This document shows positions 11,176 to 54,371 of a stretch of DNA of 64,000 nucleotides, in pieces. A program made the translations under genes and the position numbers. Source of the stretch: Lacunisphaera sp. (lineage in GTDB: Bacteria > Verrucomicrobiota > Verrucomicrobiia > Opitutales > Opitutaceae); NCBI GenBank assembly GCA_044224295.1, contig JBGAKQ010000003.1:81498-145497 (forward strand). The letters are read 5' to 3'. Every line of letters starts with the position of its first letter. Positions within the stretch are counted from its first letter, which is position 1. Below the pieces are notes generated by a model. It was not told the DNA's origin. It saw only the letters and a list, made by a program, of their open reading frames with translations, and did not search any database.

Positions 11176-12830
11176 AGTCCCTTCTTTCCCTGTTTGTATT
11201 GGCCGTCGCCAGCTCCCTGGCCGCGGCGGAACTCCCGCAACTCCGCCGGCATGGGACCGCCACCCAGCTGATCGTGGATGGCCAGCCGTTCCTCGCCCGG
11301 GGCGGCGAACTTGGCAACTCGAGCGGTGAGCCCGATTTTCTGCGCGCGTCCTGGCCGCGGCTGAAGGCGATGAACCTGAACACCGTCCTCGCGCCGGTTT
11401 ACTGGGACGTGGTCGAAGCGGAAGAGGGGAAGTTCGACTTCGCCACGGTGGACGGACTGCTCCGCGACGCACGGGCGAATGAGATGCGACTCGTCCTGCT
11501 CTGGTTTGGCACGTGGAAAAACAGCATGTCGTGCTACACACCCGCCTGGGTGAAACGCGACCAGGCCCGCTTTCCCCGCGCGCTGGACTCCTTGGGCCGG
11601 GGCCTGGAGATTCTTACGCCCTTCGTGCCCGCGAACCGCGATGCGGATGCGCGCGCCTTCGCGGCGCTCATGCGGCACCTCAAGGCGACCGACCCGCAAC
11701 ACACGGTGGTGATGGTCCAGGTGGAGAACGAAATCGGCATGATTCCCGAACCGCGTGACCGCAGTCCCGAGGCGGAGAAAGTTTATGCGGGTCCGGTGCC
11801 CGCGGCGTTGATGGATTACCTGGTGAAGAACCGGGCAACGCTCGCACCCGAGCTGACGGCTCTCTGGCAGGGCGCCGGTGGAAAAACCACGGGCACGTGG
11901 GCCGAGGTGTTTGGTCCGTCGCCGGCCGGCCAGGAGGTCTTCATGGCGTGGTACTTCGCGGCCTACACGCAGGCGGTCACGGCCGCCGGCAAGGCCGAGC
12001 TGGCGCTGCCGATGTTTGCGAATGCCGCGCTCATCCGTCCCGGCTACCAGCCGGGCCAGTACCCGAGCGCCGGGCCGCTGCCGCACCTGATCGACGTGTG
12101 GCGCGCCGCCGCGCCGGCTCTCGATTTCATCGCGCCGGACATCTACTTCTCGAACTTCTCCTATTGGGCCCAGCAGTACACGCGCAGCGGCAACCCCTTG
12201 TTCATTCCCGAGGCGATGCGCAGCCCGGAGGCGTCGGTGAACGGGCTGTATGCGTTCGGGGCCCTCAATGCCATTGGCTTCTGTCCCTTCGCGATCGAAA
12301 CGAACACCGAACCGGCGGCGGGATACCTTGCGGCGAGTTTCGACCTGGTTCGCCAGCTCACGCCCTTGCTCGTCGAGAAACAGGGCCGCGGCCTGACCGC
12401 GGGATTCCTGCAGGAGAGCGTCGAAAGCAAGCAGCCGCAGCAGGTCCGCATGGGCGGATGGATTTTCCACGCGAGCTTCGAACGCTCGGCGCCGCCGGCG
12501 CTGGCGGACGGCCTCGCGGTCGTGGTGGGCACGGAGAACTCCGCGCTGGCGGCTGGCGGTCGCGGCGGGGCCGCGCCCGCAGGCGGCCTCATGATTCAGC
12601 TCGGGCCCGACGAGTTTCTCTTCGCGGGCATCGGCCTGACGATCACCTTTGCCTCCGAGGCGCCTGGCCAGCAGGCCGGCATTCTGAGCGTCGCCGAGGG
12701 CGGCTACGTGAACGGTGAGTGGCGGCACCTGCGTTGGCTCAACGGCGACCAGACGCACCAAGGCCGACATGTGCGCCTCGAGCCGGGCCGTTTCACCATT
12801 CAACGCGTCAAACTCTACCGTTACCGCTGA
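11172..12830 (+). CDS. GH35-like beta-galactosidase family protein with DUF5597-type C-terminal region, secreted
   Basis: Signal peptide, then [10 protein letters not shown]...[24 protein letters not shown]...[24 protein letters not shown], which I recognise as the GH35/DUF5597 family. The ATG overlaps the upstream TGA as ATGA. Confidence 0.65.
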
Positions 12831-12841
12831 TCATTTACGCC

Positions 12842-15256
12842 ATGGCTCGCTTTGCTCGCCTGCTCTTCTTCGTCCTTAGCCTGGGCGGCCTCGCGCTCTG
12901 CGGCGCCGCGTCTGTTCCCGTGAAGCGCGTCGCCCTCGTCTTTGACGACGGCCCGAAGCCCGCCGATGCCGGTCCGCTGCTGACCTTGCTGGCACAGGAG
13001 AAGGTCACGGTGACGTTCTCGCTGGTCGGCGACCGCGTGAAGGAAAACCCCGAGACGGCCCGCGCCATTGCGGCGGCTGGCCACGAGATCGCCAATCACT
13101 CCCAGGCGCATGCGCATCCCAAGGATCTCAGCGATGCGGCGTTGGATCGTGAGGTGGCCGACGCCCAGCAGTTGATTGCGGCGACCGTGGGGCGCGCGCC
13201 GCGCTGGTATTGGCCGCCGTTCCTCGAAATCGACGACCGTGTCCGCGCGGCGGTGGGCCGGGCCGGGATCACGCCCTACACGCCGCACCACCTCGTCGTT
13301 TCGAAGGATTACGACCGTTCCGTCCCGGCGGCGGAAATCTACCGGCTGACCACGACCGACGTGCGCGATGGCTCGGTCATCCTCTTCCACGAATGGCGGA
13401 CCGAGACCCGTGAGCAGCTGCCGGCGATCCTGGCCGAATTGCGCCGACAGGGGGCGGAATTCTACACGTTCAGCGGCTTGGCCGCGGCGCTCGCTCAAGC
13501 CGCGCCTCCAGCGAGTCCTCCGCCTGGCGGCACGGCTTTGCTCCCGGCCGACCCGTTGGCGTTTCGCGCGACGGGTACAGACGGAGCATATCGATTCACC
13601 GTTCTCGACGTGCCGGGCCAGTCGTTCCCGCGGGCGTGGCAGATGGAAACAACTCGCGACTTGTCGCCCGCGTGGGCGGTAGAGAGCCGCGCGCGCTTCC
13701 AGCAGGGCGTAAAAAAGGGCGACGTCGCATTGGTGCGGTTTCACGCGCGCACGTTGGCGTCGGCCGATGAGACGGGCGCCGGCCAGGTGCGGGTGGTCGT
13801 GCAGAAGACCGAACCCAACTACGACAAGAGTCTGCAGATCACCCTGACGGTGGGCCGTGACTGGCAGGAGTACCTGCTCCCGTTCACTTTCGCCCAGGAC
13901 TACACCGCGGGTGAGGTCGAGCTCGCCTTCGGCTTCGGTTTCAAGCGCGAGACGCTCCAGATCGGGGGCGTCGAGGTGCTCAATTACGGCCGCAGCGTGG
14001 ACGTCCAGCAGCTGCCGCGGACGCGCTTTTCCTACGCGGGCCGCGAACCCGATGCGGCGTGGCGTCAGCAGGCGCTCGCCCGCATCGAGCAGATCCGCAA
14101 ATCCGATTTCCTCATCCAGGTGAAGAACGCCGCCGGCCAGCCCGCGGCGGGCGCGACGATTCGCGTCGAGCAGCAACGCAGCGCGTTCCAATTTGGCAGC
14201 GCGCTCCAGTTTGCGCGGCTGGTGAAGGATTCCCCGGACAATCGCATCTATCGGGAGAAGGTCCTCCAGCTGTTCAATGCCACGAGTCCGGAGAACGACT
14301 TGAAATGGCCGGTTTGGGAGGGCGAATGGCAGGGACCCTACAACCGTGAGCAGTCGTTGCAGGCCTTGCGCTGGTTGCGGGAAAACGGGCTGCATGTGCG
14401 CGGCCATGTGTTGGTGTGGCCGGGCTGGAAGAACCTGCCGAAGAGCATCGGCGCGCTAAAGGATTCCAAGGCGAATCAAGCGAAGATTCCGAGTTTGGTG
14501 CTGCAGCATATCGCGGACATCACTGCGGCGACGCGGGAGTACGTCCAGGAATGGGACGTGCTCAATGAGCCGTTTGACAACCATGACCTGATGGCGCTGT
14601 TCGGCTCGGACATCATGGTGGATTGGTTCAAGGCCGCGCGGGAGGGTGCGGCCCCGGGTGCGCCGCTGTACCTCAATGACTACAGCAACCACGACCTCGT
14701 CTCCGACAAGGCGCACTGCGCCGATTTCTACCGGGTCGCGAAGTTTCTTCAGACGAAGGGCGCCCCGCTGGGTGGACTCGGATTGCAGGGCCACATCGGC
14801 GCGCAGCCCAACCCGCCGGAGCGCGTGCTCGCGGCACTTGAAGTGTACGCCGAGTTCAAGGTGCCGATTCGCTTCACGGAATTCGACATCGATACCGACG
14901 ATGAGCAGCTGCAGGCGGACTACACGCGCGACTTCCTGATCCTTGCTTACAGCCATCCCTCCGTCGTCGGCCTGCAGCACTGGGGCTTCTGGGCAAATGC
15001 CCATTGGCGTCCGCGCGGCGCGCTCTACCGGGGCGACTGGTCGCCGAAGCCGGCCGCGTTGGCTTACGAGGACCTCGTGCTGCGGCAGTGGCGCACCAAC
15101 CTCCAGGGCAAAGTCGGCGCCGCCGGCAAGGTCGCGGGCCGGGGTTTCCACGGCGATTACCGCGTCACGGTCGAACTCGACGGCCGCCGCGCGGAGCAGA
15201 CCTTCAGCCTGCGGGCGGACGAAGCGAAGACGGTTGTCACCGTCACGCTGCCCTGA
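12842..15256 (+). CDS. Multidomain xylan enzyme: CE4 polysaccharide deacetylase + CBM4/9/22-like module + GH10 endo-1,4-beta-xylanase
   Basis: The ATG at 12842 gives a signal peptide. CE4 motifs: VALVFDDGP, HEIANHSQAH. The C-terminal GH10 region has ENDLKWPVWE, GHVLVWP, WDVLNEP and FTEFDI, the two catalytic Glu contexts. Confidence 0.85.
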   Translation: MARFARLLFFVLSLGGLALCGAASVPVKRVALVFDDGPKPADAGPLLTLLAQEKVTVTFSLVGDRVKENPETARAIAAAGHEIANHSQAHAHPKDLSDAALDREVADAQQLIAATVGRAPRWYWPPFLEIDDRVRAAVGRAGITPYTPHHLVVSKDYDRSVPAAEIYRLTTTDVRDGSVILFHEWRTETREQLPAILAELRRQGAEFYTFSGLAAALAQAAPPASPPPGGTALLPADPLAFRATGTDGAYRFTVLDVPGQSFPRAWQMETTRDLSPAWAVESRARFQQGVKKGDVALVRFHARTLASADETGAGQVRVVVQKTEPNYDKSLQITLTVGRDWQEYLLPFTFAQDYTAGEVELAFGFGFKRETLQIGGVEVLNYGRSVDVQQLPRTRFSYAGREPDAAWRQQALARIEQIRKSDFLIQVKNAAGQPAAGATIRVEQQRSAFQFGSALQFARLVKDSPDNRIYREKVLQLFNATSPENDLKWPVWEGEWQGPYNREQSLQALRWLRENGLHVRGHVLVWPGWKNLPKSIGALKDSKANQAKIPSLVLQHIADITAATREYVQEWDVLNEPFDNHDLMALFGSDIMVDWFKAAREGAAPGAPLYLNDYSNHDLVSDKAHCADFYRVAKFLQTKGAPLGGLGLQGHIGAQPNPPERVLAALEVYAEFKVPIRFTEFDIDTDDEQLQADYTRDFLILAYSHPSVVGLQHWGFWANAHWRPRGALYRGDWSPKPAALAYEDLVLRQWRTNLQGKVGAAGKVAGRGFHGDYRVTVELDGRRAEQTFSLRADEAKTVVTVTLP

Positions 15257-15306
15257 CGCGACCCGCCGTTGCCGCCGCGCCCAAGGTCACCTTAGCTCAG
15301 CCTGCC

Positions 15307-16389
15307 ATGAAACTCGGACTCGGCCTTTACCGCCACATGCTCACGCCGGAGAACTTCGCGTTTGCGAAGCAGGCGGGCGCCACCCACATCGTCGCGCACC
15401 TTGTCGACTACTTCCGCGGCGGCGCGGGACATTCGGCCACGGACGATCAACCCCTTGGAACCGACTGGGGGTGGGGCCTGGCGGGTGACCCGGACAAGCT
15501 TTGGACGCTGGAGGAGTTGCAGGCCATCAGGCGAAACACCGAGGCCGCCGGCCTGAAGCTCGAGGCGATTGAGAATTTCGACCCGGCGCATTGGGGTGAC
15601 ATCCTGTTGGACGGGCCGAAGCGGGCTCAGCACATCGAGAACGTGAAGACCATCATTCGCCGGCTCGGCGAGGCAGGGATCCCGATCATGGGCTACAACT
15701 TCTCGATCGCAGGCGTGGCGGGTCGCACCAAGGGCAACTATGCCCGCGGTCACGCGCCCTCCGTCGGCATGGAGGGGCCGTACGACTTGCCGATGCCCAA
15801 TGGCTTGGTTTGGAACATGGTGGTCGATCCGACGGCGCCGTCTCGCGACACCGGCACAATTCCGCCGGCCACGCACGCGCGGCTCTGGTCGCGGCTGCAG
15901 CGATTCCTCGACGAAGTCCTGCCGGTCGCCGAACAGGCCGGCGTGCGACTGGCGCTGCACCCGGACGATCCGCCCATGCCGACCATCCGCGGCCAGCCGC
16001 GATTGGTTTATCAGCCGTCGATGTACCAGAAGGTCATCGACCTGAATCCCAGCCCGTCGAACCAACTCGAGTTTTGCGTCGGCTCGCTCGCCGAAATGAC
16101 GGAGGGCAACATCTACGACGTCGTCGACCAGTACTCGCGGCAGAATCGCCTGGGCTACGTCCACCTGCGCAACGTCCGCGACAAGGTCCCGCACTACAAG
16201 GAGACCTTCATCGACGACGGCGAAGTCGACGTGCTCAGCGTGCTCGCGATCCTGAAGAAAAACAAATTCGATGGCGTGATCATTCCCGACCACGCGCCGC
16301 AGATGAGCTGTGCCGCCCCCTGGCACGCGGGCATGGCCTTCGCGATGGGCTACATCAAGGCCGGCATGCAATCATTGGACCGCCAATGA
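15307..16389 (+). CDS. uxuA: Mannonate dehydratase
   Basis: MKLGLGLYRHMLTPENFAFAKQAGATHIV... 360 aa with the UxuA-typical N-terminus and length. The upstream extension to 15004 is Arg/Pro-rich GC-artefact sequence. Confidence 0.85.
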   Translation: MKLGLGLYRHMLTPENFAFAKQAGATHIVAHLVDYFRGGAGHSATDDQPLGTDWGWGLAGDPDKLWTLEELQAIRRNTEAAGLKLEAIENFDPAHWGDILLDGPKRAQHIENVKTIIRRLGEAGIPIMGYNFSIAGVAGRTKGNYARGHAPSVGMEGPYDLPMPNGLVWNMVVDPTAPSRDTGTIPPATHARLWSRLQRFLDEVLPVAEQAGVRLALHPDDPPMPTIRGQPRLVYQPSMYQKVIDLNPSPSNQLEFCVGSLAEMTEGNIYDVVDQYSRQNRLGYVHLRNVRDKVPHYKETFIDDGEVDVLSVLAILKKNKFDGVIIPDHAPQMSCAAPWHAGMAFAMGYIKAGMQSLDRQ

Positions 16390-25154: not shown

Positions 25155-26243
25155 ATGAGCGAGAAACGCGTTACCCTGGCGGACATTGCCGTGAAGGCGG
25201 AGGTGCACGTGACGACTGTGTCGCTGGCGCTGCGCAACCACCCGCGTTTGCCGGAAACCACGCGCCGCCGCATCCAGGCGCTCGCGAAGAAAATGGGCTA
25301 CACGCCCGACCCGGTCCTGCGCGCGCTGGTGGCCTACCGCGGCGGCGTGATCGAGCGCCGCAACACGCCGACGCTGGCGTACGTGACGAACTGGACCACC
25401 CGCTGGGGTTGGAAAAAAGTCACCGCGCACCCGGACTTCTACGCCGGCGCGCTCGCGAAGGCCAATGAGCTCGGGTACAAACTCGACCACTTCTGGATGC
25501 GCGAGGAGGGGATGAGCCAGGAGCGCCTCGGGCAGATTTTGTACTCGCGCGGCATCAACGGCCTGATCATCGCCTCGCACGGCCGCGAGATGGGTGACGC
25601 GCTCGAGTTCGACTGGGCGAATTTCAGCGCGGTCAAGATCGACTACTTCCCGCACCAACCCGCGCTGCACAACGTCACCAACAACCAGTGCGACATCGCG
25701 CGCCTCGCCATGCAGAAGGTGATCGCCGCCGGCTACCGGCGCATCGGCTTCGTCATGCATCGCGGCTGGGACCACGCGGTGGACCACCTGTGGACCGCCG
25801 GATACCTGTGCGAGCAGCAGACCTTGGCTTCGAAGGAGCGCATCCCCGCCCATCTGTTTCCCGAGCCGGAGCCGGTCGAGCGCTGGTTGAACGAAAGTAA
25901 ATCGGACGTGGTCGTCGAACCCGCGTCGTTCGCCGCCTGGTTTCGGAAGTACCAGCCGGAAGTCATCATCAGCAAGGCGTCCTTCGTGCTGCCGACGCTG
26001 AAGGCCATGGGCGTGCGGGTGCCGCAGGACGTCGCCTTCGTCGATGTGTTCCTCGACCAGCCCGACGGCCACACCGCGGGCGTCCGGCAGAATCACACGA
26101 CCGTCGGCGCGCTCGCGGTGGAAATTCTCGCGGGCCAGCTGCAGCATAATAAATACGGGGTCCCGGAAATCCCCACGACGACGTACGTGGAAGGCACGTG
26201 GCATGACGGGGCGACGTGTCCGGTGGTGGGTCGGGATCGTTGA
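25155..26243 (+). CDS. LacI family transcriptional regulator (probable xylose/xylan locus repressor)
   Basis: N-terminal HTH VTLADIAVKAEVHVTTVSLALRNHPRLPETTRRRIQALAKKMGYTPDP, followed by a periplasmic-binding-protein-like domain. Confidence 0.9.
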   Translation: MSEKRVTLADIAVKAEVHVTTVSLALRNHPRLPETTRRRIQALAKKMGYTPDPVLRALVAYRGGVIERRNTPTLAYVTNWTTRWGWKKVTAHPDFYAGALAKANELGYKLDHFWMREEGMSQERLGQILYSRGINGLIIASHGREMGDALEFDWANFSAVKIDYFPHQPALHNVTNNQCDIARLAMQKVIAAGYRRIGFVMHRGWDHAVDHLWTAGYLCEQQTLASKERIPAHLFPEPEPVERWLNESKSDVVVEPASFAAWFRKYQPEVIISKASFVLPTLKAMGVRVPQDVAFVDVFLDQPDGHTAGVRQNHTTVGALAVEILAGQLQHNKYGVPEIPTTTYVEGTWHDGATCPVVGRDR

Positions 26244-26251
26244 TCCAGACC

Positions 26252-26412
26252 GACACACCCCGGCGTTTACCCGCCTGCGGCGGCGCGATAGGCGACCAGG
26301 GCTTTGCGCCACCCCTCTCAAGAGGGGAACTCAACGCCATAGATCCCCTCTAGAGAGGGGCCCGGCAGCCGTAGGCTTGGCGAAGGATGCTGCCGGCAGG
26401 GCGGGGTGTGTT
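26252..26412. repeat. Palindromic repeat family B (ACACACCCCG ... CCCCTCTNNAGAGGGG x2 ... CGGGGTGTGT), copy 1 (longest, degenerate)
   Basis: Outer arms ACACACCCCGG / CGGGGTGTGT. Inner palindromes CCCCTCTCAAGAGGGG (about 26312) and CCCCTCTAGAGAGGGG (about 26345). Confidence 0.75.
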
Positions 26413-26532
26413 CGGTTTCTGGTTCACGTCCCTCAAAAGAGGATTCGCCAGACCATCCCCGCCGGTTGACTGTACGCTGTCTTAAGCCGCCTTTTCGCTT
26501 CCCAAAATTCCCGGTTCGACAAGCCTGTTCCC

Positions 26533-27531
26533 GTGAGCGTTTACCTCCCTGACCCCAAGCGCTACGAAGCGATCCAATACGCCCGTTGCGGTCGCAGCGG
26601 CCTCCGCCTCCCGAGATTGTCCCTCGGCCTCTGGCACAACTTCGGCGGCGTCGACCCGGTCGAGAACCAGCGCGCGCTGCTGCGGCGTTCCTTCGATCTC
26701 GGCATCACCCATTTCGACCTGGCCAACAACTACGGTCCGCCGCCGGGCACGGCGGAGGAGAACTTCGGCCGCATCCTGCGGATGGATTTCGCCGCGCACC
26801 GGGATGAACTCATCATTTCTTCCAAGGCCGGCTATTACATGTGGCCGGGACCTTACGGTGAATGGGGCTCGCGGAAAAACCTCCTCGCCTCGCTCGACCA
26901 GAGCCTGAAGCGCATGGGCCTGCCGTACGTGGATATCTTCTACCACCACCGGCCCGATCCCGACACCCCGCTCGAGGAATCGATGACCGCGCTGGCGGAC
27001 GCCGTGCGTTCCGGCCGCGCGCTCTATGCAGGCATTTCCAATTACAAGGCCGCAGAAACCCGCCAGGCCGCGGCGATCCTGAAGAGCCTCGGCGTGCCGC
27101 TGCTCATCCACCAGCCGAAGTACAATATGTTCAACCGCTGGGTGGAGCCGGAGCTGCTGCCGACGCTCGCCGAGGTGGGCGCGGGCTGCATCCCGTTCTC
27201 GCCGCTTGCGCAGGGTCTGCTGACCAACCGCTACCTCGGCGGCATCCCGGCCGATTCGCGCGCGGTGAAGTCGGGCGTTTTCCTCAAGCCGACGCAAATT
27301 ACGCCTGAGGTGCTCGCCAAGATCCAGGCGCTGAACGAGGTCGCCCAGGCGCGCGGCGCGACGCTGGCCCAGCTCGCCACCAACTGGCTGCTGCGCCGTC
27401 CGGAAGTCACCAGCGTGCTGATCGGCGCGAGCAAGGTCTCGCAAATCGACGACATCCACGCCGGCTTGAAACAACCCCCGCTCGCCGCCGCCGAACTGGC
27501 GAAGATCGAGTCGATCCTCGGGTCGAGCTGA
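26533..27531 (+). CDS. Aldo/keto reductase (YghZ / Kv-beta-like subfamily)
   Basis: YARCGRSGLRLPRLSLGLWHNFGG, ITHFDLANNYGPPPG, DIFYHHRPD, ISNY. 332 aa. Confidence 0.9.
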   Translation: MSVYLPDPKRYEAIQYARCGRSGLRLPRLSLGLWHNFGGVDPVENQRALLRRSFDLGITHFDLANNYGPPPGTAEENFGRILRMDFAAHRDELIISSKAGYYMWPGPYGEWGSRKNLLASLDQSLKRMGLPYVDIFYHHRPDPDTPLEESMTALADAVRSGRALYAGISNYKAAETRQAAAILKSLGVPLLIHQPKYNMFNRWVEPELLPTLAEVGAGCIPFSPLAQGLLTNRYLGGIPADSRAVKSGVFLKPTQITPEVLAKIQALNEVAQARGATLAQLATNWLLRRPEVTSVLIGASKVSQIDDIHAGLKQPPLAAAELAKIESILGSS

Positions 27532-27572
27532 GTTCGCGTACCTGCTTTTCCCAAATCTTAAATGCAAACGCC

Positions 27573-27662
27573 GTCATTCTGAGCGAAGCAAAGAATCCAA
27601 GGGAGCGCTCGCCATGATAACGATTCGCGCCCACTTGGATCCTTCGCTTCGCTCAGGATGAC
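27573..27662. repeat. Palindromic repeat family A, copy 2
   Basis: GTCATTCTGAGCGAAGCAAAGAATCC ... GGATCCTTCGCTTCGCTCAGGATGAC. Confidence 0.8.
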
Positions 27663-27716
27663 GACAAAATAGTGTTCACCGCGCTTCGCGCTCATTCGCT
27701 TTAACCCCTCCCTCCC

Positions 27717-28754
27717 ATGCCCCGTCCAATCACCCTCTTCACCGGCCAATGGGCCGACCTGCCGCTCGAGAAACTGGCCCCGCTGATCAAGAAAATGGGC
27801 TACGACGGCGTCGAGCTCGCCTGCTGGGGCGACCACTTCGACGTCGATGCCGCCGCCACGTCCGACAAATACCTGAAGGACAAATGGGCGCTGTTGCAGG
27901 ATCACGGCCTGACCTGCTTCGCGATCTCGAGCCACCTGGTCGGCCAGGCGGTGTGCGACCTCATCGACGAGCGGCACAAGTCGATCCTGCCGGCCGATGT
28001 CTGGGGCGACGGCGACCCCGAGGGCGTGCGGCGCCGCGCGGCCAAGAAGCTCGCGCTCGCCGCGAAGGCTGCGCGTCGTTTCCGCGATGCCCAGCCGGGC
28101 GGCGACAAAAAAGCCGCGGCGGTCGTGAATGGCTTCACGGGCTCGTCAATCTGGCACTCGATCTACGCGTTTCCGCCGACGTCGCAGGCTTACTGGGACG
28201 CGGGTTTCGCGGATTTTGCGAAGCGGTTCGGCCCGATCCTTGCGGAGTTCGACAAACACAACGTGAACTTCGCCCTCGAGGTGCATCCGACCGAGATCGC
28301 CTTCGACATCGCCAGCGCCGAGCGGGCGATCGCCGCGGTGAAGGGTCACAAGCGCTTTGGGTTCAATTACGACCCGTCGCACCTGGGTTATCAGGGCGTG
28401 GACTACGTGAAGTTCATCCGCACCTTTGGGCCGCGCATTTTCCATGCGCACATGAAGGACGTCTGGTGGGGCCACGGCGACGGCACCGTCGGCGTGTTCG
28501 GCGGCCACACCAGCTTCGGCGACGCCCGCCGCGCCTGGGACTTCCGCTCGGTTGGGCGCGGGGACGTCAAGTTTGAAGACATTATTGTCGCGTTGAACGA
28601 CGTCGGTTACGCCGGCCCGCTGTCGGTGGAGTGGGAGGACATCCGCATGGACCGCGAACACGGCGCCACGGAGTCCTGCGCGTTTCTCCGCAAACTCGAC
28701 TTCGCCCGCAGCACGGTGGCCTTCGACGCGGCGTTTGATAAGAAGAACCAATGA
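27717..28754 (+). CDS. Sugar phosphate isomerase/epimerase (xylose-isomerase-like TIM barrel), cytoplasmic
   Basis: [45 protein letters not shown] and SVEWED fit the AP-endonuclease-2 / xylose-isomerase-like TIM family. No signal peptide. Confidence 0.85.
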
Positions 28755-28761
28755 TTTTCTT

Positions 28762-28823
28762 ACAGGAGGTCGCAGAGCACGCAGAGCTTGGATTGATTCT
28801 CCGCGGTCTCTGCGGCCTCCTGT
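28762..28823. repeat. Palindromic element family E (ACAGGAGGTCGCAGAG ... CTCTGCGGCCTCCTGT), single copy in the window
   Basis: 16-bp inverted arms with one mismatch, between the TIM-barrel and Gfo/Idh/MocA genes. Confidence 0.5.
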
Positions 28824-28841
28824 AGAATATTCCCCACTTCA

Positions 28842-29996
28842 ATGAACCGAAAACTTCGCTTTGGGATGATTGGCGGTGGCCGCGGGGCCTTTATTGGCGC
28901 GGTGCATCGCATTGCCGCCCGCATGGACGGGCAGGCGGAACTGGTCGCGGGCGCGTTCTCCAGCGACGCGGCGCGCTCGAAGGCGTCCGGGGCCGACCTC
29001 CACCTCGACCCGGCCCGCGTGTATGGGTCCTACCAGGAAATGGCGCGCGCCGAGGCGAAACGCCCGGCGTCCGAGCGCCTCGACTTCGTGGTGATCGTCA
29101 CGCCGAACCACCAGCATTTCCCGCCGGCGAAACTGTTCCTCGAGTCCGGCTTCAATGTCGTGTGCGACAAGCCGGTGACGTTCAACCTCGCGGAGGCGAA
29201 AAAACTCGAGGCCATCGTCCGCAAGACCAAGAAGGTCTTCGTCCTGACCCACAACTACACCGGCAACGCCATGGTGAAGCAGGCGCGCGCGCTGGTGGCC
29301 GAAGGAAAGCTTGGGAAGATTCGCAAGATCGTCGTGGAGTATCCGCAGGGCTGGCTCGCCACGCGGTTGGAGACCACCGGCCAGAAACAGGCCGGGTGGC
29401 GGACGGACCCGAAGCGCAGCGGCGCCGCGGGTGCGATGGGTGACATCGGGACACATGCGGAGAACCTGGCGCGTTACATCACCGGGCTGCGGATCGCCGA
29501 ATTGTGCGCGGACCTGACCACTTTTGTCGCGGGCAGAAAACTTGATGACGACGGCAACATTCTGGTGCGGTACCGCGGCGGCGCGAAGGGCGTGTTGCAC
29601 GCCTCGCAGATTTCCGTCGGCGAGGAGAACAACCTGAACATCCGGGTCTATGGCGAGAAGGGCGGCCTTGAATGGAAACAGGAGCACCCGAACGAGCTGA
29701 TCGTGAAGTACCCCGACCGGCCGGCGGAGACCTGGCGGCGTGGCAACGGCTATGTCGGTCCGGCGGCCGCCAGGGCCACGCGCATCCCGCCGGGCCACCC
29801 GGAAGGCTACCTCGAGGCGTTCGGCAATGTTTACCGCGAGGCCTTCCGCGCCATTGCCGCCGAAGTCGCGGGAAAGCCGCTGCCGCGGGACCTGGATTTC
29901 CCGACGATCGCCGACGGCGTCGAGGGCATGCAGTTCATCGAGACCGCCGTCCGCAGCGCCAAGCTCGGCGCGAAGTGGGTGAAGTTTCCCGAGTGA
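28842..29996 (+). CDS. Gfo/Idh/MocA family NAD(P)-dependent oxidoreductase
   Basis: N-terminal Rossmann [22 protein letters not shown] and the VCDKPV motif (the EKP-like context of this family). 384 aa. Confidence 0.9.
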
Positions 29997-30116
29997 ACCG
30001 GTGGATCATTTGAACATTTCAACGATTTAAGCGGCGGCCGGCTGGCCCCAACCCCCGACGAAAATCAACGATTGCCTCTGTCCCCGAACGGGGCCCGCTC
30101 GTAAGCGCGCGGCGTA

Positions 30117-30138
30117 TCGCCTGTAAACAGGCTCCTAT
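30117..30138. repeat. Repeat family C, solitary half-element (TCGCCTGTAAACAGGCTCCTAT)
   Basis: It matches the right arm of the family C palindromes at 54403-54479 and 55346-55421. I saw no left arm nearby. Confidence 0.5.
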
Positions 30139-30150
30139 CCGTACCGCCCC

Positions 30151-31953
30151 ATGCCCCTCATCACCCCCGCGCAGTTGAAGTCCGGTTACGATGTGATTGT
30201 CGTTGGTTCTGGCGCGGGCGGCGGCCAGGCCGCGTACACTCTCACGATGGAGGGCGTGAAGGTGCTGATGCTCGAGGCCGGGCGAAACTACGTGCCCGAG
30301 ACCGAAACGCCGATGTTCGAAACGGCCGATCAGGCGCCGTTGCGCGGGACGTCGACGCCCGACAAGCCCTTTGGTTTTCACGACGCGACGATCGATGGCG
30401 GATGGCAAGTGCCGGGCGAGCCGTACACGAGCGCGATCGACGCTCCCGGTCGGAAGTTCGAATGGTGGCGCGCCCGCATGCTCGGCGGCCGCACCAACCA
30501 CTGGGGCCGGCTTTCCTTCCGCAACGGTCCGTATGATTTCAAGCCGCGCCGCCGCGACGGCCTCGGGTTTGACTGGCCGATGGATTACGAGGACCTCGCA
30601 CCGTACTACGACAAGGTCGAGATGCTGATCGGCGTTTACGGCAACAACGATGGCCTCGAGAACACGCCCAACTCCTCGCCGGGGGTCTTGTTGCCGCCGC
30701 CGAAGGCGCGCGTCAGCGACCGCTTGTTCCAGAAGCGCGCGGGCGAGCTCGGCATACCCGTGGTCGCCGCGCACCGCGCCGTGCTGAGCCAGCGCCTGGA
30801 TTCCGCGCGGCTGCCGGCCAAGTTGCACCCGGGAAACCCCATGGCGCAGCGCGTCCTGCGCGAGGCGATGGAAGGGCGCGCGGCCTGTTTCTGGGCGACG
30901 AACTGCGGGCGGGGTTGCGCGATCCGCGCCACGTACCAGTCGACGACCGTGCACCTGCCGCCGGCGATGGCGACCGGCAATCTCGACCTCGTGACCAACG
31001 CCATGGCGCGCGAGGTGACCACGGGCCCGGACGGCAAGGCGACCGGCGTCATCTTCATCGACAAGACGACCGGTCGCGAATTCACGGCCAAGGCGCGCGT
31101 CGTCGTGCTCGCCGCCAGCTCGGGCGAAACCGTGCGCCTGATGCTCAATTCCAAGTCGGCCCGTTTTCCGCAGGGCCTGGCGAACTCGTCCGGGTTGGTC
31201 GGCAAGTACCTCATGGACACGGTCGGCGCCGATTTTTCGGGCCAGATTCCCGTCTTGGAGAACCTGCCGCCGCACAACGAGGACGGCGCCGGCGGGTCGC
31301 ATGTGTACGCGCCGTGGTGGCTGTACCAGGAGCAGCTCGCCGGCAAGCTCGGCTTCGCGCGCGGCTATCACATCGAGTTCGGCGGTGGCCGTCACCTGCC
31401 GGGCATGGGCACGATCAGCGGGTGGGAGTGGCTCACCGGCGGCACCTACGGCCGGAAATTCAAGGAGGACGCGCGGCGCTACTATGGGTCGTTCGTCGGC
31501 TTCTCCGGCCGGGGCGAAATGATTCCGAACGAGGATTCGTTCTGCGAGCTCGACCCCGTCGTGAAGGACAAGTGGGGCATTCCGGTGCTGCGCTTCCACT
31601 GGAAGTGGTCGGAACACGAGATCCGCCAGGCGGCGCATATGCATAGAACCTTCGCCGAGATCATCTCCGCGATGGGCGGACGCGTTCGCGCGAAACCCCA
31701 GACCGACGGCGCCAAGGCCATTGCGAACGGCGGTGTGATCATCCACGAGGTCGGCGGCGCCATCATGGGCGACGACCCGAAGAAATCGGTGACCAACCAG
31801 TGGTCGCAAACCTGGGACGTGCCCAATCTCTTCCTCACCGACGGCGCGCCGTTCTGCAGCAACGCCGACAAGAACCCTACGCTCACGATCATGGCCCAGG
31901 CCTGGCGCTCCGCCGACCGCATCGTGGCCGAGCTGAAGAAACAGAATTTGTGA
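30151..31953 (+). CDS. GMC family FAD-dependent oxidoreductase (large subunit)
   Basis: YDVIVVGSGAGGGQAAYTL FAD motif, a C-terminal HEVGGAIMG active-site His context, and NLFLTDGAPF. 600 aa, no own signal peptide. Confidence 0.9.
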   Translation: MPLITPAQLKSGYDVIVVGSGAGGGQAAYTLTMEGVKVLMLEAGRNYVPETETPMFETADQAPLRGTSTPDKPFGFHDATIDGGWQVPGEPYTSAIDAPGRKFEWWRARMLGGRTNHWGRLSFRNGPYDFKPRRRDGLGFDWPMDYEDLAPYYDKVEMLIGVYGNNDGLENTPNSSPGVLLPPPKARVSDRLFQKRAGELGIPVVAAHRAVLSQRLDSARLPAKLHPGNPMAQRVLREAMEGRAACFWATNCGRGCAIRATYQSTTVHLPPAMATGNLDLVTNAMAREVTTGPDGKATGVIFIDKTTGREFTAKARVVVLAASSGETVRLMLNSKSARFPQGLANSSGLVGKYLMDTVGADFSGQIPVLENLPPHNEDGAGGSHVYAPWWLYQEQLAGKLGFARGYHIEFGGGRHLPGMGTISGWEWLTGGTYGRKFKEDARRYYGSFVGFSGRGEMIPNEDSFCELDPVVKDKWGIPVLRFHWKWSEHEIRQAAHMHRTFAEIISAMGGRVRAKPQTDGAKAIANGGVIIHEVGGAIMGDDPKKSVTNQWSQTWDVPNLFLTDGAPFCSNADKNPTLTIMAQAWRSADRIVAELKKQNL

Positions 31954-31966
31954 TGCGCGGCGATCA

Positions 31967-32060
31967 ACACACCCCGTCGCTGCGCGCCACCCCTCTCGAG
32001 AGGGGACCTTCTGCAGTGCGATCCCCTTTTGAGAGGGGTGCCCGACAGGGCGGGGTGTGT
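31967..32060. repeat. Palindromic repeat family B, copy 2 (between GMC large and small subunit genes)
   Basis: ACACACCCCGTCGCTGCGCGCCACCCCTCTCGAGAGGGGA ... TCCCCTTTTGAGAGGGGTGCCCGACAGGGCGGGGTGTGT. Confidence 0.8.
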
Positions 32061-32136
32061 CGGACGCGTGTCCGCGAGCGCACCACTCATCCCGTCGGGG
32101 TATAAAACCCCTCCCAACAAATTCAGGACCTGCCCC

Positions 32137-32775
32137 ATGGAACCTACTTCCCGCATCGACCGCCGCACCGCCATCAAGTGGATGCTCGCCGCCTCGGCCA
32201 CGCTGGCGATCGACCCGCAATTCACGCGCGCCGACGCGGCCGCCACGCCCTCGGGCCGGGGTTATGGCAGCGATCCTGACATCCTGCGGCACTATAAGCC
32301 GGGCGAGTTGTGGCCGCTGACCCTCACGGACGCCCAGCGACGGACGGCGGCCGCGCTTTGCGACGTCATCATTCCCGCGGACGAGTTCTCGCCGGCCGCC
32401 TCGGCGGTCGGCGTGGTGGACTTCATCGACGAATGGATCAGCGCGCCGTACCCGAAACAACGCGCCGACCGCGAGGTCGTGCTGCCGGGCCTGGCGTGGA
32501 TCGACGAGGAGGCGCACAAGCGGTTCGGGCGCGGCTTCGCGGAACTTGCGGCCACGCAGCACGCGGCGATCTGCGACGACATTTGTGCACCGGCCACGGC
32601 CAAGCCGGAGTTCAGTCAGGCGACGCAGTTCTTTTCCCTGTATCGCAACCTGACGGCCGGCGGTTTCTACACGACCCCGGTCGGGGCGAAGGACCTGCGC
32701 TACGTCGGCAACGTGCCGCTCGCGACATTCGACGGCCCGCCGCTGGAAGCGCTGAAGCAGGCGGGTTTGGCGTGA
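32137..32775 (+). CDS. Gluconate 2-dehydrogenase subunit 3-family protein (TAT-signal small subunit partner of the GMC oxidoreductase)
   Basis: The ATG at 32137 gives MEPTSRIDRRTAIKWMLAASATLAI, a twin-arginine-type signal. The size and the GGFYTTPVG C-terminal motif are typical of this family. Confidence 0.8.
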   Translation: MEPTSRIDRRTAIKWMLAASATLAIDPQFTRADAAATPSGRGYGSDPDILRHYKPGELWPLTLTDAQRRTAAALCDVIIPADEFSPAASAVGVVDFIDEWISAPYPKQRADREVVLPGLAWIDEEAHKRFGRGFAELAATQHAAICDDICAPATAKPEFSQATQFFSLYRNLTAGGFYTTPVGAKDLRYVGNVPLATFDGPPLEALKQAGLA

Positions 32776-32792
32776 GCGCTTATGGCATCCCT

Positions 32793-32893
32793 ACACACCC
32801 CGCCCTGCCGGGCACCCCTCTCGAGAGGGGATCTGCGTTGGCGCCGTCCGGGGTCCCCTCTCGAGAGGGGTGGCGCGCAGCGACGGGGTGTGT
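32793..32893. repeat. Palindromic repeat family B, copy 3 (between small subunit and DUF1080 genes)
   Basis: ACACACCCCGCCCTGCCGGGCACCCCTCTCGAGAGGGGATC ... GTCCCCTCTCGAGAGGGGTGGCGCGCAGCGACGGGGTGTGT. Confidence 0.8.
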
Positions 32894-32912
32894 TCTCGGA
32901 AAAGATTCCTTT

Positions 32913-33572
32913 ATGAAAACCATGTTCATCGCGCTCCTCACGCTCGGTGGCCTCTGCGCCGCGCTCACCGCCGCCGAAACCAACACGCTCACCCCCGCTG
33001 AGAAAACCGCGGGCTGGCAGCTCCTGTTCGACGGCCAATCGCTCAACGGCTGGAAGACGAACGAATCGCCGGCGACGTTCTCCGTCGCGAACGGCGAATT
33101 GGTCGTCAAGGGCACGCGCTCACACCTGTTCTACGATGGCCCGGTGGCGAATCACGACTTCAAGAATTTCGAACTGACGGTCGACGTGCTCACCAAGCCC
33201 AAGGCGAACTCGGGGGTGTATCTCCACACCGAGTGGCAGGCCGAAGGCTGGCCCGCGAAGGGGTACGAGGTGCAGGTGAACAACAGTCACAAGGACCCCA
33301 AGCGGACCGCGGGGCTATATGGCATCAAGGACAACCTCGAGGCGGTCGCGAAGGACGACGTTTGGTTCACGCTGGTGATCCGCGTGGACGGCCGGCACAT
33401 CACGACCAGCGTGGACGGAAAGGTCATCATCGATTTCATGGAGCCGGAGGGGTGGACGCCGCCCGCGGATTTCGCGGGCCGGAAGCTCGCGCACGGCACC
33501 TTCGCCCTGCAGGGGCATGATCCGGGCAGCGAAGTGCATTATCGGAACATCAAGGTGCGCGTGCTGCCATAG
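32913..33572 (+). CDS. DUF1080 (3-keto-disaccharide hydrolase family, concanavalin-like) protein, Sec-secreted
   Basis: The ATG at 32913 gives MKTMFIALLTLGGLCAALTAAE. GWQLLFDGQSLNGWK, FELTVDV, NSGVYLH, GYEVQV, FALQGHDPGSEVHYRNIKV are the family hallmarks. Confidence 0.8.
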   Translation: MKTMFIALLTLGGLCAALTAAETNTLTPAEKTAGWQLLFDGQSLNGWKTNESPATFSVANGELVVKGTRSHLFYDGPVANHDFKNFELTVDVLTKPKANSGVYLHTEWQAEGWPAKGYEVQVNNSHKDPKRTAGLYGIKDNLEAVAKDDVWFTLVIRVDGRHITTSVDGKVIIDFMEPEGWTPPADFAGRKLAHGTFALQGHDPGSEVHYRNIKVRVLP

Positions 33573-33652
33573 TGTCAGGCAGGACGCCGTTTTTCGGCGC
33601 CCGCACGCGCCGTCGCGCGCCACCCCTGCAACAAGCTCTCAACCCACTAAAA

Positions 33653-34519
33653 ATGACCCCTCCATTCACCCGTCGCGATGTCCTGCAATCCCTCCTCGCC
33701 GGCGCCGCCCTGGCGGCGCTGCCCCGCACCGCCTTCGGCGCCGACGCGACCGCGCCGGTGGCCACGGGGTTCCGTCACTCCGTGTGCAAATGGTGCTTCA
33801 AGGACATCCCGCTCGCCGAGTTCGCGGCGGCGGTGAAGGAGTTCGGCCTCGAGTCGGTCGAGCTGCTCAATCCCGACGAGTGGCCGGTCGTCCAGAAGCT
33901 CGGCCTGACGTGCGCCATGGCGACGGGCACGACGACAATTCCCAAGGGGTTCAACCGGGTCGAAAACCACGCCGCTTATGTTCCTTCCATGATCGAGCGC
34001 ATCAAGCTGTGCGCCGATGCGGGCCTGCCGAACGTGATCGTGTTCTCCGGCAATCGCGAAGGCATGTCCGACGAGCAGGGGTTGGAAAACTGCGCGGTCG
34101 GCCTGAAACAGATTGTCGGCGAAGCCGAGAAGCGCGGCGTCACCGTGTGCATGGAACTCCTCAACTCGAAGGTGAACCACAAGGACTACATGTGCGATCG
34201 CACGCCCTGGGGCGTCGAGCTCGTGAAGCGCGTGGGCTCGGAGCGCTTCAAGCTGCTTTACGACATCTACCACATGCAGATCATGGAAGGGGACGTGATC
34301 CGCACGATTCAAGATGCGCATCCCTACATTGGCCACTACCACACCGCCGGCAATCCGGGACGTCACGAAATCGACGACAGCCAGGAATTGAACTATCCGG
34401 CGATCATGCGCGCCATCAAGGCCACCGGTTTCAAGGGCTTCGTCGCCCAGGAATTCATCCCCGCGAAAAAGCCCGCCCTCGATTCGCTGAAGGCCGCGGT
34501 GAAGCTGTGCACGGTGTGA
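33653..34519 (+). CDS. Hydroxypyruvate-isomerase-like / xylose-isomerase-like TIM-barrel protein with TAT signal (periplasmic)
   Basis: The ATG at 33653 gives MTPPFTRRDVLQSLLAGAALAALP, a twin-arginine motif. Also CKWCFKD, VCMELLN, YDIYHMQIMEGD, GHYHTAG, QEFIP. Confidence 0.85.
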   Translation: MTPPFTRRDVLQSLLAGAALAALPRTAFGADATAPVATGFRHSVCKWCFKDIPLAEFAAAVKEFGLESVELLNPDEWPVVQKLGLTCAMATGTTTIPKGFNRVENHAAYVPSMIERIKLCADAGLPNVIVFSGNREGMSDEQGLENCAVGLKQIVGEAEKRGVTVCMELLNSKVNHKDYMCDRTPWGVELVKRVGSERFKLLYDIYHMQIMEGDVIRTIQDAHPYIGHYHTAGNPGRHEIDDSQELNYPAIMRAIKATGFKGFVAQEFIPAKKPALDSLKAAVKLCTV

Positions 34520-34567: not shown

Positions 34568-35260
34568 TCAATACCCCGCTTCCTTCAGCGCCGCCAGGAT
34601 GCGGCGTTCGCCGCCGCCAATGTGCCGGGCCATCAACTTTTCGGCCTGCGCGGCGTCTCGCTTGCGGATTGCCTCAACCACCTTGATGTGCTCCTGCGTC
34701 GATTCCTCCGCGTCGATGCCGACGTCCAGACCCAGGAAACACGGCCGCTGGTGTCGCTCGAGGACGGTCGCGACGAGGCTTTCCAGCTGGCTGTTCCGCG
34801 CGCACCGGGCGATCTCCACGTGAAAACGATTATTCGCAAGCAGGTACGCGCGGTAGCTCTTGTGGTCACCGAGCGTGTACGAGAGCGTGGAAAGCTCCGA
34901 CAGTCGATTGACGTCCTCGGGGGTGGCGCGTTCCGCCGCCAAGGCCGCGACGGCGGGTTCGATCATCCGGCGCACCTCGCATAGATCCTGGAAGCTGCGG
35001 GCCGTCAGCGGGGCGACGGTGTAGCCGCGAAACGGACTCGCCATCACCAGGTTCTCGTTGGCCAGGCGGTTGAGCGCCTCGCGGATCGGCGTGCGCGAAA
35101 CGCCCAGCTGCGCGCAGAGCTCGGCCTCGATCAAGCGGTCGTCGGGTTTGAGGAGGCAGGTGAGGATGCTGTGCTTGAGCTCAGCGTAGACGCGGTCCGG
35201 CAGTACGCTCCCACCTGTGCGATTGCCATTGCTCGTTTCGGGCGCAGAAGCGGTTTTCAT
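34568..35260 (-). CDS. GntR family transcriptional regulator, FadR subfamily (FCD ligand domain)
   Basis: The ATG at 35260. Winged HTH LIEAELCAQLGVSRTPIREALNRLANENLV, then an FCD-like helical domain (EVRRMIEPAVAALAAERATPEDV ... FHVEIARCARNSQL ... EHIKVVEAIRKRD). Confidence 0.9.
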   Translation of the reverse strand: MKTASAPETSNGNRTGGSVLPDRVYAELKHSILTCLLKPDDRLIEAELCAQLGVSRTPIREALNRLANENLVMASPFRGYTVAPLTARSFQDLCEVRRMIEPAVAALAAERATPEDVNRLSELSTLSYTLGDHKSYRAYLLANNRFHVEIARCARNSQLESLVATVLERHQRPCFLGLDVGIDAEESTQEHIKVVEAIRKRDAAQAEKLMARHIGGGERRILAALKEAGY

Positions 35261-35335
35261 GGTGGGGTGAACCGGGCGATTTATCCGGGCCAGCGCCCCG
35301 GGGGTCGAGTAATTAATAAGGAGCAACTGCCGGCC

Positions 35336-53150: not shown

Positions 53151-54371
53151 ATGAATCCCTCCCGTCTCTTCACGGCGAGTTGCGTCGCCCTGATCACCAC
53201 TGCCATGAGTTTCGCCCTGCGGGGCGGGGCCACGGGCGACTGGATCACCCAGTTCAACCTGACCAACGAGCAGGTGGGTTGGGTCAACGGCACGGCTTTC
53301 TGGGGCTTCACCCTGGCGATGGTGTTCGGCGGACCGCTCGTCGACACGCTTGGCTTCCGCCGGATCCTGGGCGTGGCGTTCGTCGGCCACGCCGCGGGCA
53401 TCCTGCTCACGATTTTTGCGTGGGACTTTTGGAGTCTCTTCACCGGCACGCTGCTCTTCGGCATCGCCAACGGCTCCGTTGAGGCCGCCTGTAATCCGCT
53501 GGTCGCGACCATTTATCCGAAAAACCAGACCACGAAGCTCAACCATTTCCACGTGTGGTTCCCCGGCGGCATCGTGATCGGCGGTTTGCTCGCGTTCCTC
53601 TTTGGCAAACTGGGGTTGGGCTGGAAGGCGCAGTTCGCCACCATGCTGCTGCCGCTGGTCGGCTACGGTTTCCTTTTTCTCGGCCAGGAAATGCCCCGCA
53701 CCGAGCGCGTGCAGCGCGGCGAAAGCACGGGTTCGATGTTCGCGGCCTGCCTCGCCCCTGGTTTCCTGCTCATGGTCGTCTGCATGTTGATGACCGCCGC
53801 AACCGAGCTCGGCTCGGGCCAGTGGATTCCCAACATCCTCTCGCACGCGGGTGTTTCCGGCATCCTCGTCCTCGTGTGGATCAACGGCATCATGGCGGTC
53901 GGCCGCATGTTCGCCGGTCCCTTCGTGCACAAACTCTCGCCCAACGGCATGCTCGTCATGAGCGCGATCCTTTCGACGCTCGGCCTCTACGCCATGAGCC
54001 ACGCCAGCGGCAACATGCTCTTCGCCGCCGCGACCGTCTTTGCGTTCGGCGTGTGCTTCTTCTGGCCCACGATGGTCGGTTATGTCGCCGAGAATTTCCC
54101 CATGACCGGCGCCCTCGGCATGGCGATCGTCGGCGGGGCCGGCATGCTCAGCGTGAGTTTCGTCCTTCCGATCATCGGCAAGTGGTATGACGCCGGCATC
54201 GCCGCGCGCACCCCGGCCGGCGCGGCCCCCACGGGCGACGCGCTGGCGGCGATCCAGGCCGCGGCGGGGCTCGAGGCCCTGGGCAAGGTCGCGATCCTGC
54301 CGGCCGTGCTGACAGTGATCTTTATCGGCATCCTGCTCGCGCGGCGCGCGAGCGCCAAAGCGGCGGCTTGA
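53151..54371 (+). CDS. MFS transporter (substrate unknown)
   Basis: The ATG at 53151 gives MNPSRLFTASCVALITTAMSF. 12 predicted hydrophobic segments. The extension to 52653 is Arg/Pro-rich non-membrane sequence. Confidence 0.8.
   Translation: MNPSRLFTASCVALITTAMSFALRGGATGDWITQFNLTNEQVGWVNGTAFWGFTLAMVFGGPLVDTLGFRRILGVAFVGHAAGILLTIFAWDFWSLFTGTLLFGIANGSVEAACNPLVATIYPKNQTTKLNHFHVWFPGGIVIGGLLAFLFGKLGLGWKAQFATMLLPLVGYGFLFLGQEMPRTERVQRGESTGSMFAACLAPGFLLMVVCMLMTAATELGSGQWIPNILSHAGVSGILVLVWINGIMAVGRMFAGPFVHKLSPNGMLVMSAILSTLGLYAMSHASGNMLFAAATVFAFGVCFFWPTMVGYVAENFPMTGALGMAIVGGAGMLSVSFVLPIIGKWYDAGIAARTPAGAAPTGDALAAIQAAAGLEALGKVAILPAVLTVIFIGILLARRASAKAAA

Follow-up and report, generated by a model that had tools for sequence, protein, structure and literature searches.

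The 64-kb stretch of Lacunisphaera sp. DNA analysed here, referred to below as the window, contains a string of six genes at 27717-34519 on the forward (+) strand that is probably part of a non-hydrolytic pathway, in which glycosides are split by oxidation, elimination, hydration and reduction. Two of the products are cytoplasmic and four are exported. A preliminary description of this DNA had proposed a two-compartment oxidative 3-keto-glycoside pathway with a hitch-hiker GMC dehydrogenase, and the proposal is supported by homology to characterised enzymes and by synteny across phyla. Domains, leader motifs, homology and synteny were observed; every enzymatic activity discussed below is inferred. 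The six genes, with start sites corrected for the small subunit (32137, in an open reading frame (ORF) starting at 32029), the DUF1080 protein (32913) and TIM2 (33653), are the following.

27717-28754 (+): TIM1, a xylose-isomerase-like TIM barrel (PF01261, E = 5e-35)
28842-29996 (+): Gfo, a Gfo/Idh/MocA oxidoreductase (PF01408, PF22725, PF02894)
30151-31953 (+): GMC600, the 600-residue catalytic subunit of a GMC dehydrogenase dependent on flavin adenine dinucleotide (FAD) (PF00732, PF05199)
32137-32775 (+): small subunit, of the "gluconate 2-dehydrogenase subunit 3" family (PF13618, E = 1e-26)
32913-33572 (+): DUF1080 protein (PF06439, E = 9e-39)
33653-34519 (+): TIM2, a hydroxypyruvate-isomerase (HPI)-like TIM barrel (PF01261, E = 2e-27; TIGR03234, 101 bits against a cut-off of 353)

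All of the genes named in the preliminary description lie on one strand, as it stated. The eight genes at 25155-34519, which include a LacI regulator and an aldo-keto reductase (AKR) upstream of the string, run in the + direction with a strong coding signal in the G+C content of third codon positions (GC3). Its assignment of the products to compartments also agrees with the N-termini, which we read at the level of motifs and not by dedicated signal-peptide prediction. TIM1, Gfo and AKR have no leader and are taken as cytoplasmic. GMC600 opens directly with its FAD fold (YDVIVVGSGAGGG at residue 13) and therefore has no leader of its own, and the small subunit begins with MEPTSRIDRRTAIKWMLAASATLAI...ADA, a twin-arginine leader containing SRIDRRTAIKWMLAASATLAI. 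The pair thus consists of a leaderless GMC protein, predicted to be periplasmic, and a partner with a twin-arginine translocation (Tat) signal. The DUF1080 protein has a Sec-type leader without a canonical lipobox (MKTMFIALLTLGGLCAALTAAE). TIM2 begins with MTPPFTRRDVLQSLLAGAALAALPRTAFGADA, and its leader, ...FTRRDVLQSLLAGAALAAL...AFGADA, is of the twin-arginine type, with 20.3 bits against the Pfam TAT_signal model, slightly below the cut-off of 22.7.

A pathway of four enzymes for oxidation, elimination, hydration and reduction has been described in Agrobacterium tumefaciens (Bitter et al. 2023, PMC10628242). The reference sequences of GlycDH, AtOGE, AtHYD and Gfo Oxo were taken from the machine-read supplement of that paper, and the identities quoted to these four are slight underestimates because of a few errors of optical character recognition. 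Gfo shares 54% identity with Gfo Oxo of A. tumefaciens over its full length (E = 4e-123) and matches PDB entry 3v5n with E = 9e-127. With this identity and no leader, it has the features of a cytoplasmic 3-keto-glucose reductase of the Gfo/Idh/MocA family. Gfo Oxo, combined with AtOGE, AtHYD and NADH, converts 3-keto-phlorizin to glucose (PMC10628242, supplementary figure 22). Because of its identity to this reductase, Gfo would act at the end of the pathway and not as its initiator, and its most likely candidate function is that of an NAD(P)H-dependent terminal 3-keto-sugar reductase. The earlier listing of the Gfo/Idh/MocA protein as a possible glycoside 3-dehydrogenase should be revised in this sense.

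TIM1 has its PDB matches in 2zds (E = 8e-104) and in 8ro4, the 2-hydroxy-3-keto-glucal hydratase AtHYD (E = 3.6e-35). It is a paralogue of AtHYD, with 30% identity, and holds the position of AtHYD beside Gfo in four of the loci compared below (L014, L020, L059 and L073). Its orthologues (59-87% identity) are paired with a Gfo gene in these four and in a sister metagenome-assembled genome (MAG; L001). TIM1 is a candidate 2-hydroxy-3-keto-glycal hydratase, and possibly a lyase.

To compare gene neighbourhoods, one genome per species was scanned, which gave at least 596 loci with GMC relatives; the best 80, 64-89% identical to GMC600, were analysed. Spread over five phyla, they belong to Verrucomicrobiota, Xanthomonadales, Steroidobacteraceae, Gemmatimonadota, Planctomycetota, Microbulbifer and Rheinheimera. 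The small subunit follows GMC600 in 79 of them. A profile search within 5 kb of GMC600 finds DUF1080 in 41 loci, Gfo in 33, a TIM barrel in 32 and an MFS transporter in 21, and stricter typing by BLAST places at least one partner within 6 kb in 37. The density of DUF1080 genes is 6.2 per 100 kb up to 2.5 kb from the pair and less than 1 per 100 kb beyond, and that of MFS genes is 4.3 per 100 kb near the pair against 0-1.2 per 100 kb farther away. The clustering of partners around the GMC/small-subunit pair is more than chance.

The composition of these clusters is informative. In seven loci (L017, L021, L071, L077, L073, L059 and L020) the GMC600 orthologue is the sole GMC enzyme, and it is accompanied by AtHYD orthologues (63-74% identity) or TIM1-type barrels together with a Gfo reductase (47-63%); most of the seven also carry an OGE-like TIM barrel, DUF1080 or MFS gene. 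An especially clear case is a RefSeq-annotated Pseudoalteromonas chromid, in which a tight operon has the order Gfo, AtHYD (68%), MFS, DUF1080, GMC, small subunit and OGE-like TIM barrel. Its GMC protein is 52% identical to GMC600 and 31% identical to GlycDH. This cross-phylum synteny is the best argument that members of the GMC600 clade may initiate the pathway that GlycDH initiates.

The window contains a second module, 18.6 kb downstream of the string, which was overlooked in the preliminary description. Its three genes on the reverse (-) strand converge on an MFS gene.

53151-54371 (+): MFS transporter (PF07690), 88% identical to the in-operon MFS of Oleiharenicola lentus (L083)
54488-55333 (-): Sec-signal AtOGE-like TIM barrel (PF01261), 27% identical to AtOGE with E = 2e-20; leader MKLIPSLAALAMLNTALGAA
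55431-56027 (-): Tat-signal small subunit of GMC563 (PF13618, E = 5e-33); leader MNLTRREAIKSMAIL
56038-57729 (-): GMC563, a 563-residue GlycDH orthologue (PF00732, PF05199), 68% identical to GlycDH of Rhizobium sp. GIN611 over 560 residues

An AtOGE-type eliminase is absent from the string itself, and the AtOGE-like barrel of the second module is a candidate periplasmic 3-keto-glycoside beta-eliminase. The MFS transporter, also 47-50% identical to in-operon MFS genes of L014, L073 and Pseudoalteromonas, is a candidate importer of a keto-sugar or glycal intermediate. Taken as a whole, the window thus has a homologue of each of the four A. tumefaciens enzymes, in addition to a second periplasmic set, spread over two loci. 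In the cultured O. lentus (L083, 6762-15173) both modules form one tight operon with the order MFS (88%), TIM2 (75%), GMC563 (80%), small subunit, TIM269, GMC600 (81%), small subunit and DUF1080 (71%). Immediately upstream of GMC563 in the window is a 235-residue ORF (57909-58616, -) without a Pfam match.

We propose the following course of events. GMC600, folded in the cytoplasm with its FAD and 3Fe-4S cluster, would associate with the PF13618 small subunit, and the twin-arginine leader of the latter would direct the export of both by the Tat system. Once in the periplasm, GMC600 would oxidise one of the ring hydroxyls of the glycoside, most likely C3-OH; the Fe-S cluster would pass the electrons on to an acceptor for which no gene lies nearby. 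Since a 3-keto group renders the C2 hydrogen acidic and hence removable, DUF1080 and/or the metal-dependent TIM2 may abstract the C2 proton and eliminate the group at C1. This would yield a 2-hydroxy-3-keto-glycal or, with hydration already in the periplasm, a 3-keto sugar; the MFS transporter at 53151-54371 would probably import this product. Hydration of the glycal in the cytoplasm would then fall to TIM1, and the 3-keto sugar would finally be reduced by Gfo, with NAD(P)H, to give the free sugar. The second module (54488-57729), with its GlycDH orthologue, Tat subunit and AtOGE-like eliminase, would represent the canonical front half of the pathway, and the cytoplasmic back half in the string (TIM1 and Gfo) could serve both periplasmic modules.

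Several observations weigh against this interpretation; they concern GMC600, both TIM barrels, DUF1080 and the spacing of the genes. Gfo alone among the proteins of the string is closely orthologous to a characterised enzyme: the identity is 31% for GMC600 with GlycDH and 30% for TIM1 with AtHYD, and for TIM2 no similarity to AtOGE is detectable. GMC600 is not a GlycDH orthologue at this identity, and the true orthologue lies elsewhere in the window, at 56038-57729. Furthermore, the position that GMC600 oxidises, proposed above to be C3-OH, cannot be read from the sequence. No likely gene of the window contains a CxxCH motif; neither a cytochrome c nor any other electron acceptor is encoded in the 64 kb. 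In 43 of the 80 loci, many of them on short contigs, the pair stands alone with no partner within 6 kb.

Some of these points would fit a respiratory dehydrogenase for sugars, polyols or sugar acids, of the glucose, fructose or gluconate 2-dehydrogenase type; GMC600 and its small subunit would in that case oxidise a free compound that is no glycoside, or a carbon other than C3. The TIM barrels, DUF1080 and Gfo would then merely salvage a keto-sugar, with no cleavage of a glycosidic bond. The best solved relatives of GMC600 are the catalytic subunits of the Burkholderia cepacia FAD-dependent glucose dehydrogenase (GDH; PDB 6a2u) and the Gluconobacter fructose dehydrogenase (FDH; 7w2j), with E of about 1e-43, and the small subunit belongs to a family named after gluconate 2-dehydrogenase. 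Cys246, Cys252 and Cys256 of GMC600, which ten relatives have without exception, correspond in the alignment to the cysteines that bind the 3Fe-4S cluster in B. cepacia GDH; the pair shares this triad and the Tat hitch-hiker small subunit with GDH and FDH. The low identity to GlycDH and the many solitary pairs also fit such an enzyme. However, GDH and FDH possess a multihaem cytochrome c subunit, which is not encoded within the window, and the equivalent of their Cys213 is Phe in GMC600. A cytochrome-type gene adjoins GMC600 orthologues in almost none of the 80 loci. Moreover, GMC600 aligns with GlycDH of Rhizobium sp. GIN611 from end to end (E = 6e-69, 221 bits), above its phmmer scores of about 153 bits with GDH and FDH, although the two values were obtained by different methods and are not directly comparable. 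GMC600 orthologues also share tight operons with orthologues of AtHYD, with OGE-like eliminases and with lyases of the DUF1080 family, partners that make sense only if a glycosidic substituent is eliminated. The genomic context points to C3 chemistry on glycosides and not to oxidation of free sugars, and we regard a respiratory dehydrogenase as unlikely.

The relation between GMC600 and GlycDH can be specified further. Because true GlycDH orthologues (55-65% identity) adjoin GMC600 orthologues in five loci (L008, L009, L014, L031 and L045), and GMC600 is only 31% identical to GlycDH, GMC600 represents a separate paralogous clade. A characterised member of this clade of 600-residue GMC proteins was not found. 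In some Verrucomicrobiota (L048, L051 and L053) the small subunit is followed, some 850 bp downstream of GMC600, by a gene for a protein of roughly 1210-1230 residues that combines a DUF1080 region with a single CxxCH motif, and in L030 a 1102-residue ORF with two CxxCH motifs lies directly 3' of GMC600. Such proteins may be fusions that act as electron acceptors or lyases.

The DUF1080 protein matches BT2157 (8tda and 3osd), which is characterised as a lyase/hydratase of 3-keto-glycosides, over its full length by family profile (E = 3e-49). According to Nasseri et al. (2024, bioRxiv 10.1101/2024.03.25.586180), DUF1080 proteins are alpha-lyases and hydratases, and TIM barrels are beta-lyases; from the same study we took the eight conserved residues of BT2157 as the active-site set (E103, N134, E164, Q166, Y190, K245, Q273 and H275). 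Only five are retained in the window protein, as N99, E119, Q121, Q200 and H202 (in the order N134, E164, Q166, Q273, H275). The loop with E103 is missing, Y190 is replaced by Ala, and K245, which binds the 6-hydroxyl group, by Asp, in a loop-like region where the alignment is uncertain. The same subtype is found in L001, L083, L008, L014 and L041: the E103 loop is lacking, Y190 is Ala or Gly, and K245 is Asp, Asn, Gln or Glu (residues 133 and 186 of the window protein). Another subtype, beside GMC600 in Gammaproteobacteria, retains Y/F190 and K245. The window protein, of a divergent subtype, is thus a candidate for both 3-keto-glycoside 1,2-lyase and 3-keto-glycal hydratase activity.

No similarity of TIM2 to AtOGE-type eliminases can be detected (E = 1.6 against the OGE-like TIM barrel). 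Neither TIM barrel of the string matches BT1 or AL1 by sequence, and in the PDB no sequence match of TIM2 to these two was obtained. By sequence and predicted fold, its nearest proteins are HPI-like proteins, YgbM, ketose 3-epimerases and the 3-keto-glucoside 4-epimerase YcjR. The AlphaFold model (mean predicted confidence, pLDDT, 80.8) has its best PDB folds in 3ngf (template-modelling (TM) score 0.81), YcjR 6wn6 (0.77) and YgbM 1k77 (0.75). This fold search does not separate lyases from epimerases and isomerases because the whole superfamily matches. Glu168, Asp204, His230 and Glu267 are invariant among the relatives, and their spacing presumably resembles that of the metal tetrad in the HPI and ketose-epimerase group. 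TIM2 is a candidate metal-dependent periplasmic isomerase, epimerase or lyase of 3-keto sugars or 3-keto-glycosides, all of which proceed by enolisation. An orthologue with 75% identity is in the O. lentus operon. In Opitutus terrae (L081, 8001-8885), an orthologue of 71-78% identity is located alone between sodB/fur and a TonB receptor, with no GMC or DUF1080 gene near.

With regard to co-expression, the genes of the string lie 80-185 bp apart, and the spacers are filled with nested palindromes or hairpins that resemble repetitive extragenic palindromic (REP) elements. One REP-like family with the core CACCCCTCTCGAGAGGGGA occupies 31960-32067 and 32798-32887, flanking the small-subunit gene, and also the spacer between LacI and AKR (26244-26532); other palindromes lie at 27572-27663 and 28761-28824. 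A match of one REP-like hairpin to an Rfam miRNA family reached 30 bits against a cut-off of 73 and is attributed to chance. These spacers would suit an arrangement in which the string is not one unit, so that TIM1-Gfo and GMC600-small subunit-DUF1080-TIM2 are expressed separately and only loosely related, and AKR and LacI belong to the xylose genes. The shuffled gene order among genomes and the solitary TIM2 of O. terrae are in line with it. However, L001 packs the same genes with spacers of roughly 0-80 bp, so that the palindromes look like recent insertions, and the TIM/Gfo pair accompanies the GMC pair in several phyla. A scan for sigma-70-like promoters and terminators, uninformative as it was, detected neither in any spacer of the string, which leaves no terminator-like site in favour of separate units. 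The sampled sequence words had no occurrence in the RNA runs found, all of them tiny metatranscriptomes. We consider separate units a less probable arrangement, though one of some weight, and co-transcription of the string likely.

Comparison with known systems places the proposed glycoside-splitting pathway in a familiar context. The preliminary description regarded both the combination of enzymes and their compartment split as uncharacterised; both, however, match the A. tumefaciens pathway (PMC10628242) and recur elsewhere in tight operons, for example in the Pseudoalteromonas chromid. The GlycDH operon of A. tumefaciens and Rhizobium sp. GIN611 (PMC10628242) has, like the string, a leaderless GMC protein with a Tat partner and a reductase of the Gfo/Idh/MocA family; its eliminase and hydratase are TIM barrels, for which the window has candidates. 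The differences are that the string's own GMC protein is the 600-residue paralogue, that it adds DUF1080 and the Tat-exported HPI-like barrel, which are outside the four characterised enzymes of that operon, and that 18.6 kb separate the two loci between which the genes in the window are divided. In Bacteroides thetaiotaomicron BT2156-BT2160 and Alistipes AL1-3 (Liu et al. 2021, PMC8121099; bioRxiv 10.1101/2024.03.25.586180), a DUF1080 protein and a xylose-isomerase-like TIM barrel work on 3-keto-glycosides in the periplasm, as proposed for the string. Their oxidant is a Gfo/Idh/MocA protein recycled by its own product, whereas that of the string would be the GMC/Fe-S protein. In agreement with this difference, Gfo scores 30.2 bits against NF058561, the model of the BT_2158 family (cut-off 750), and has no export signal. 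LacABC of Caulobacter crescentus (Price et al. 2022, PMC9007349) likewise includes a periplasmic GMC-type dehydrogenase and is accompanied by DUF1080, TIM-barrel "epimerases" and a sugar reductase. The cluster is tied by genetics to the use of glycosides (PMC9007349), and LacABC is linked genetically with DUF1080 (PMC9007349, PMC8121099). Unlike LacABC, whose three components we compared by description only, the window has no cytochrome-type third subunit.

Cleavage of C-glycosides, in the manner of CarABC or DgpABC, was also considered, as the preliminary description had offered it as an option. GlycDH-type enzymes oxidise C-glycosides too (PMC10628242), and TIM barrels are the catalytic subunits of C-deglycosidases. 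The defining parts, however, were not seen: no small beta-subunit of the DgpC or CarC type is among the annotated genes, for which no dedicated profile search was made, the DgpB-C structure ranks only 47th for TIM2 (TM score 0.61-0.66), and the best matches of TIM1 are of the hydratase type. On these grounds, which for the beta-subunit cover the annotated genes, C-glycoside cleavage was rejected, and we regard it as highly improbable.

The kind of system is therefore already known, and the locus is fairly ordinary and adds little conceptually. It is mildly unusual in its widespread GMC paralogue, the missing cytochrome subunit, the divergent DUF1080, the Tat-exported HPI-like TIM barrel and the split over two loci. 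The non-hydrolytic 3-keto route itself was recognised only recently as an alternative to glycoside hydrolases, and the mapping of its distribution in the environment is still in progress. In this respect, a widespread and highly conserved clade of 600-residue GMC/Fe-S proteins, annotated just as "GMC family oxidoreductase", repeatedly replaces the characterised glycoside 3-dehydrogenase, often shares an operon with the characterised-type enzyme, and has no dedicated cytochrome subunit. Characterisation of one member, for example from O. lentus or Pseudoalteromonas, would provide an annotation for thousands of environmental genes and would show whether the two paralogues divide alpha- and beta-linked or hexoside and pentoside substrates between them. 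O. lentus, with both modules in one operon, is a good experimental system.

The genes that adjoin the string are the following.

25155-26243 (+): regulator of the LacI family
26533-27531 (+): AKR, similar to YghZ/L-glyceraldehyde-3-phosphate reductase (PF00248, E = 1.4e-66; NF007388, 455.7 bits against a cut-off of 448)
34568-35326 (convergent, after TIM2): GntR gene

AKR adjoins the string only here and in L001, and its membership in the pathway is doubtful. Farther upstream is a glucuronoxylan locus, which we find to be real: it consists of a TonB receptor, a GDSL esterase, a CE4-GH10 xylanase, UxuA, a short-chain dehydrogenase, GH67, a GPH-type MFS transporter, GH3, XylA and LacI. The longest ORFs of the CE4-GH10 xylanase (12719-15256) and UxuA (15004-16389) overlap by about 250 bp, and the true start of UxuA probably lies further downstream.

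The position of the string directly after this locus, as stated in the preliminary description, is correct; the hint at a xylan-derived substrate that was drawn from it is weakened, since the adjacency is shared only with L001, where the same order extends from XylA and LacI through TIM2. A module dedicated to xylan-derived substrates, that is xylo-oligosaccharides, aldouronates or aryl and alkyl xylosides, would explain this order in the two genomes. The replacement of Lys245 in DUF1080 would also fit pentosides; within the uncertainty of the alignment there, it is a weak lead that may point to sugars without a C6 hydroxyl group. Nevertheless, no homologue of the xylan genes (GH10, GH67, GH3, XylA, UxuA and others) lies within 10 kb in any of the other 83 loci, whose sole matches to the genes of the xylan locus are distant short-chain dehydrogenases in L021, L022 and L027. 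The same DUF1080 subtype occurs without xylan genes in L083, L008, L014 and L041, and the locus already has a full hydrolytic route (GH10, GH67, GH3 and XylA). The neighbourhood therefore assigns no substrate, given that xylan genes and AKR are kept beside the string only in L001, and a dedicated xylan role, rejected for this reason, seems quite improbable to us.

A more elaborate proposal combines several of these elements. The GMC600 clade could be a glycoside dehydrogenase with a specificity other than that of GlycDH (alpha-linked sugars or sugars lacking C6), paired in Opitutaceae and some xanthomonads with a lysine-less DUF1080 and providing Lacunisphaera-like bacteria with an oxidative alternative for those xylan-derived glycosides on which hydrolases fail. 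Taken jointly, these claims have a small probability.

The window has a G+C content of 65%, and the closest relatives of its proteins are those of Lacunisphaera and other Opitutaceae (Verrucomicrobiota). DNA runs place the organism in activated sludge and bioreactors, whose metagenomes carry near-identical DNA.

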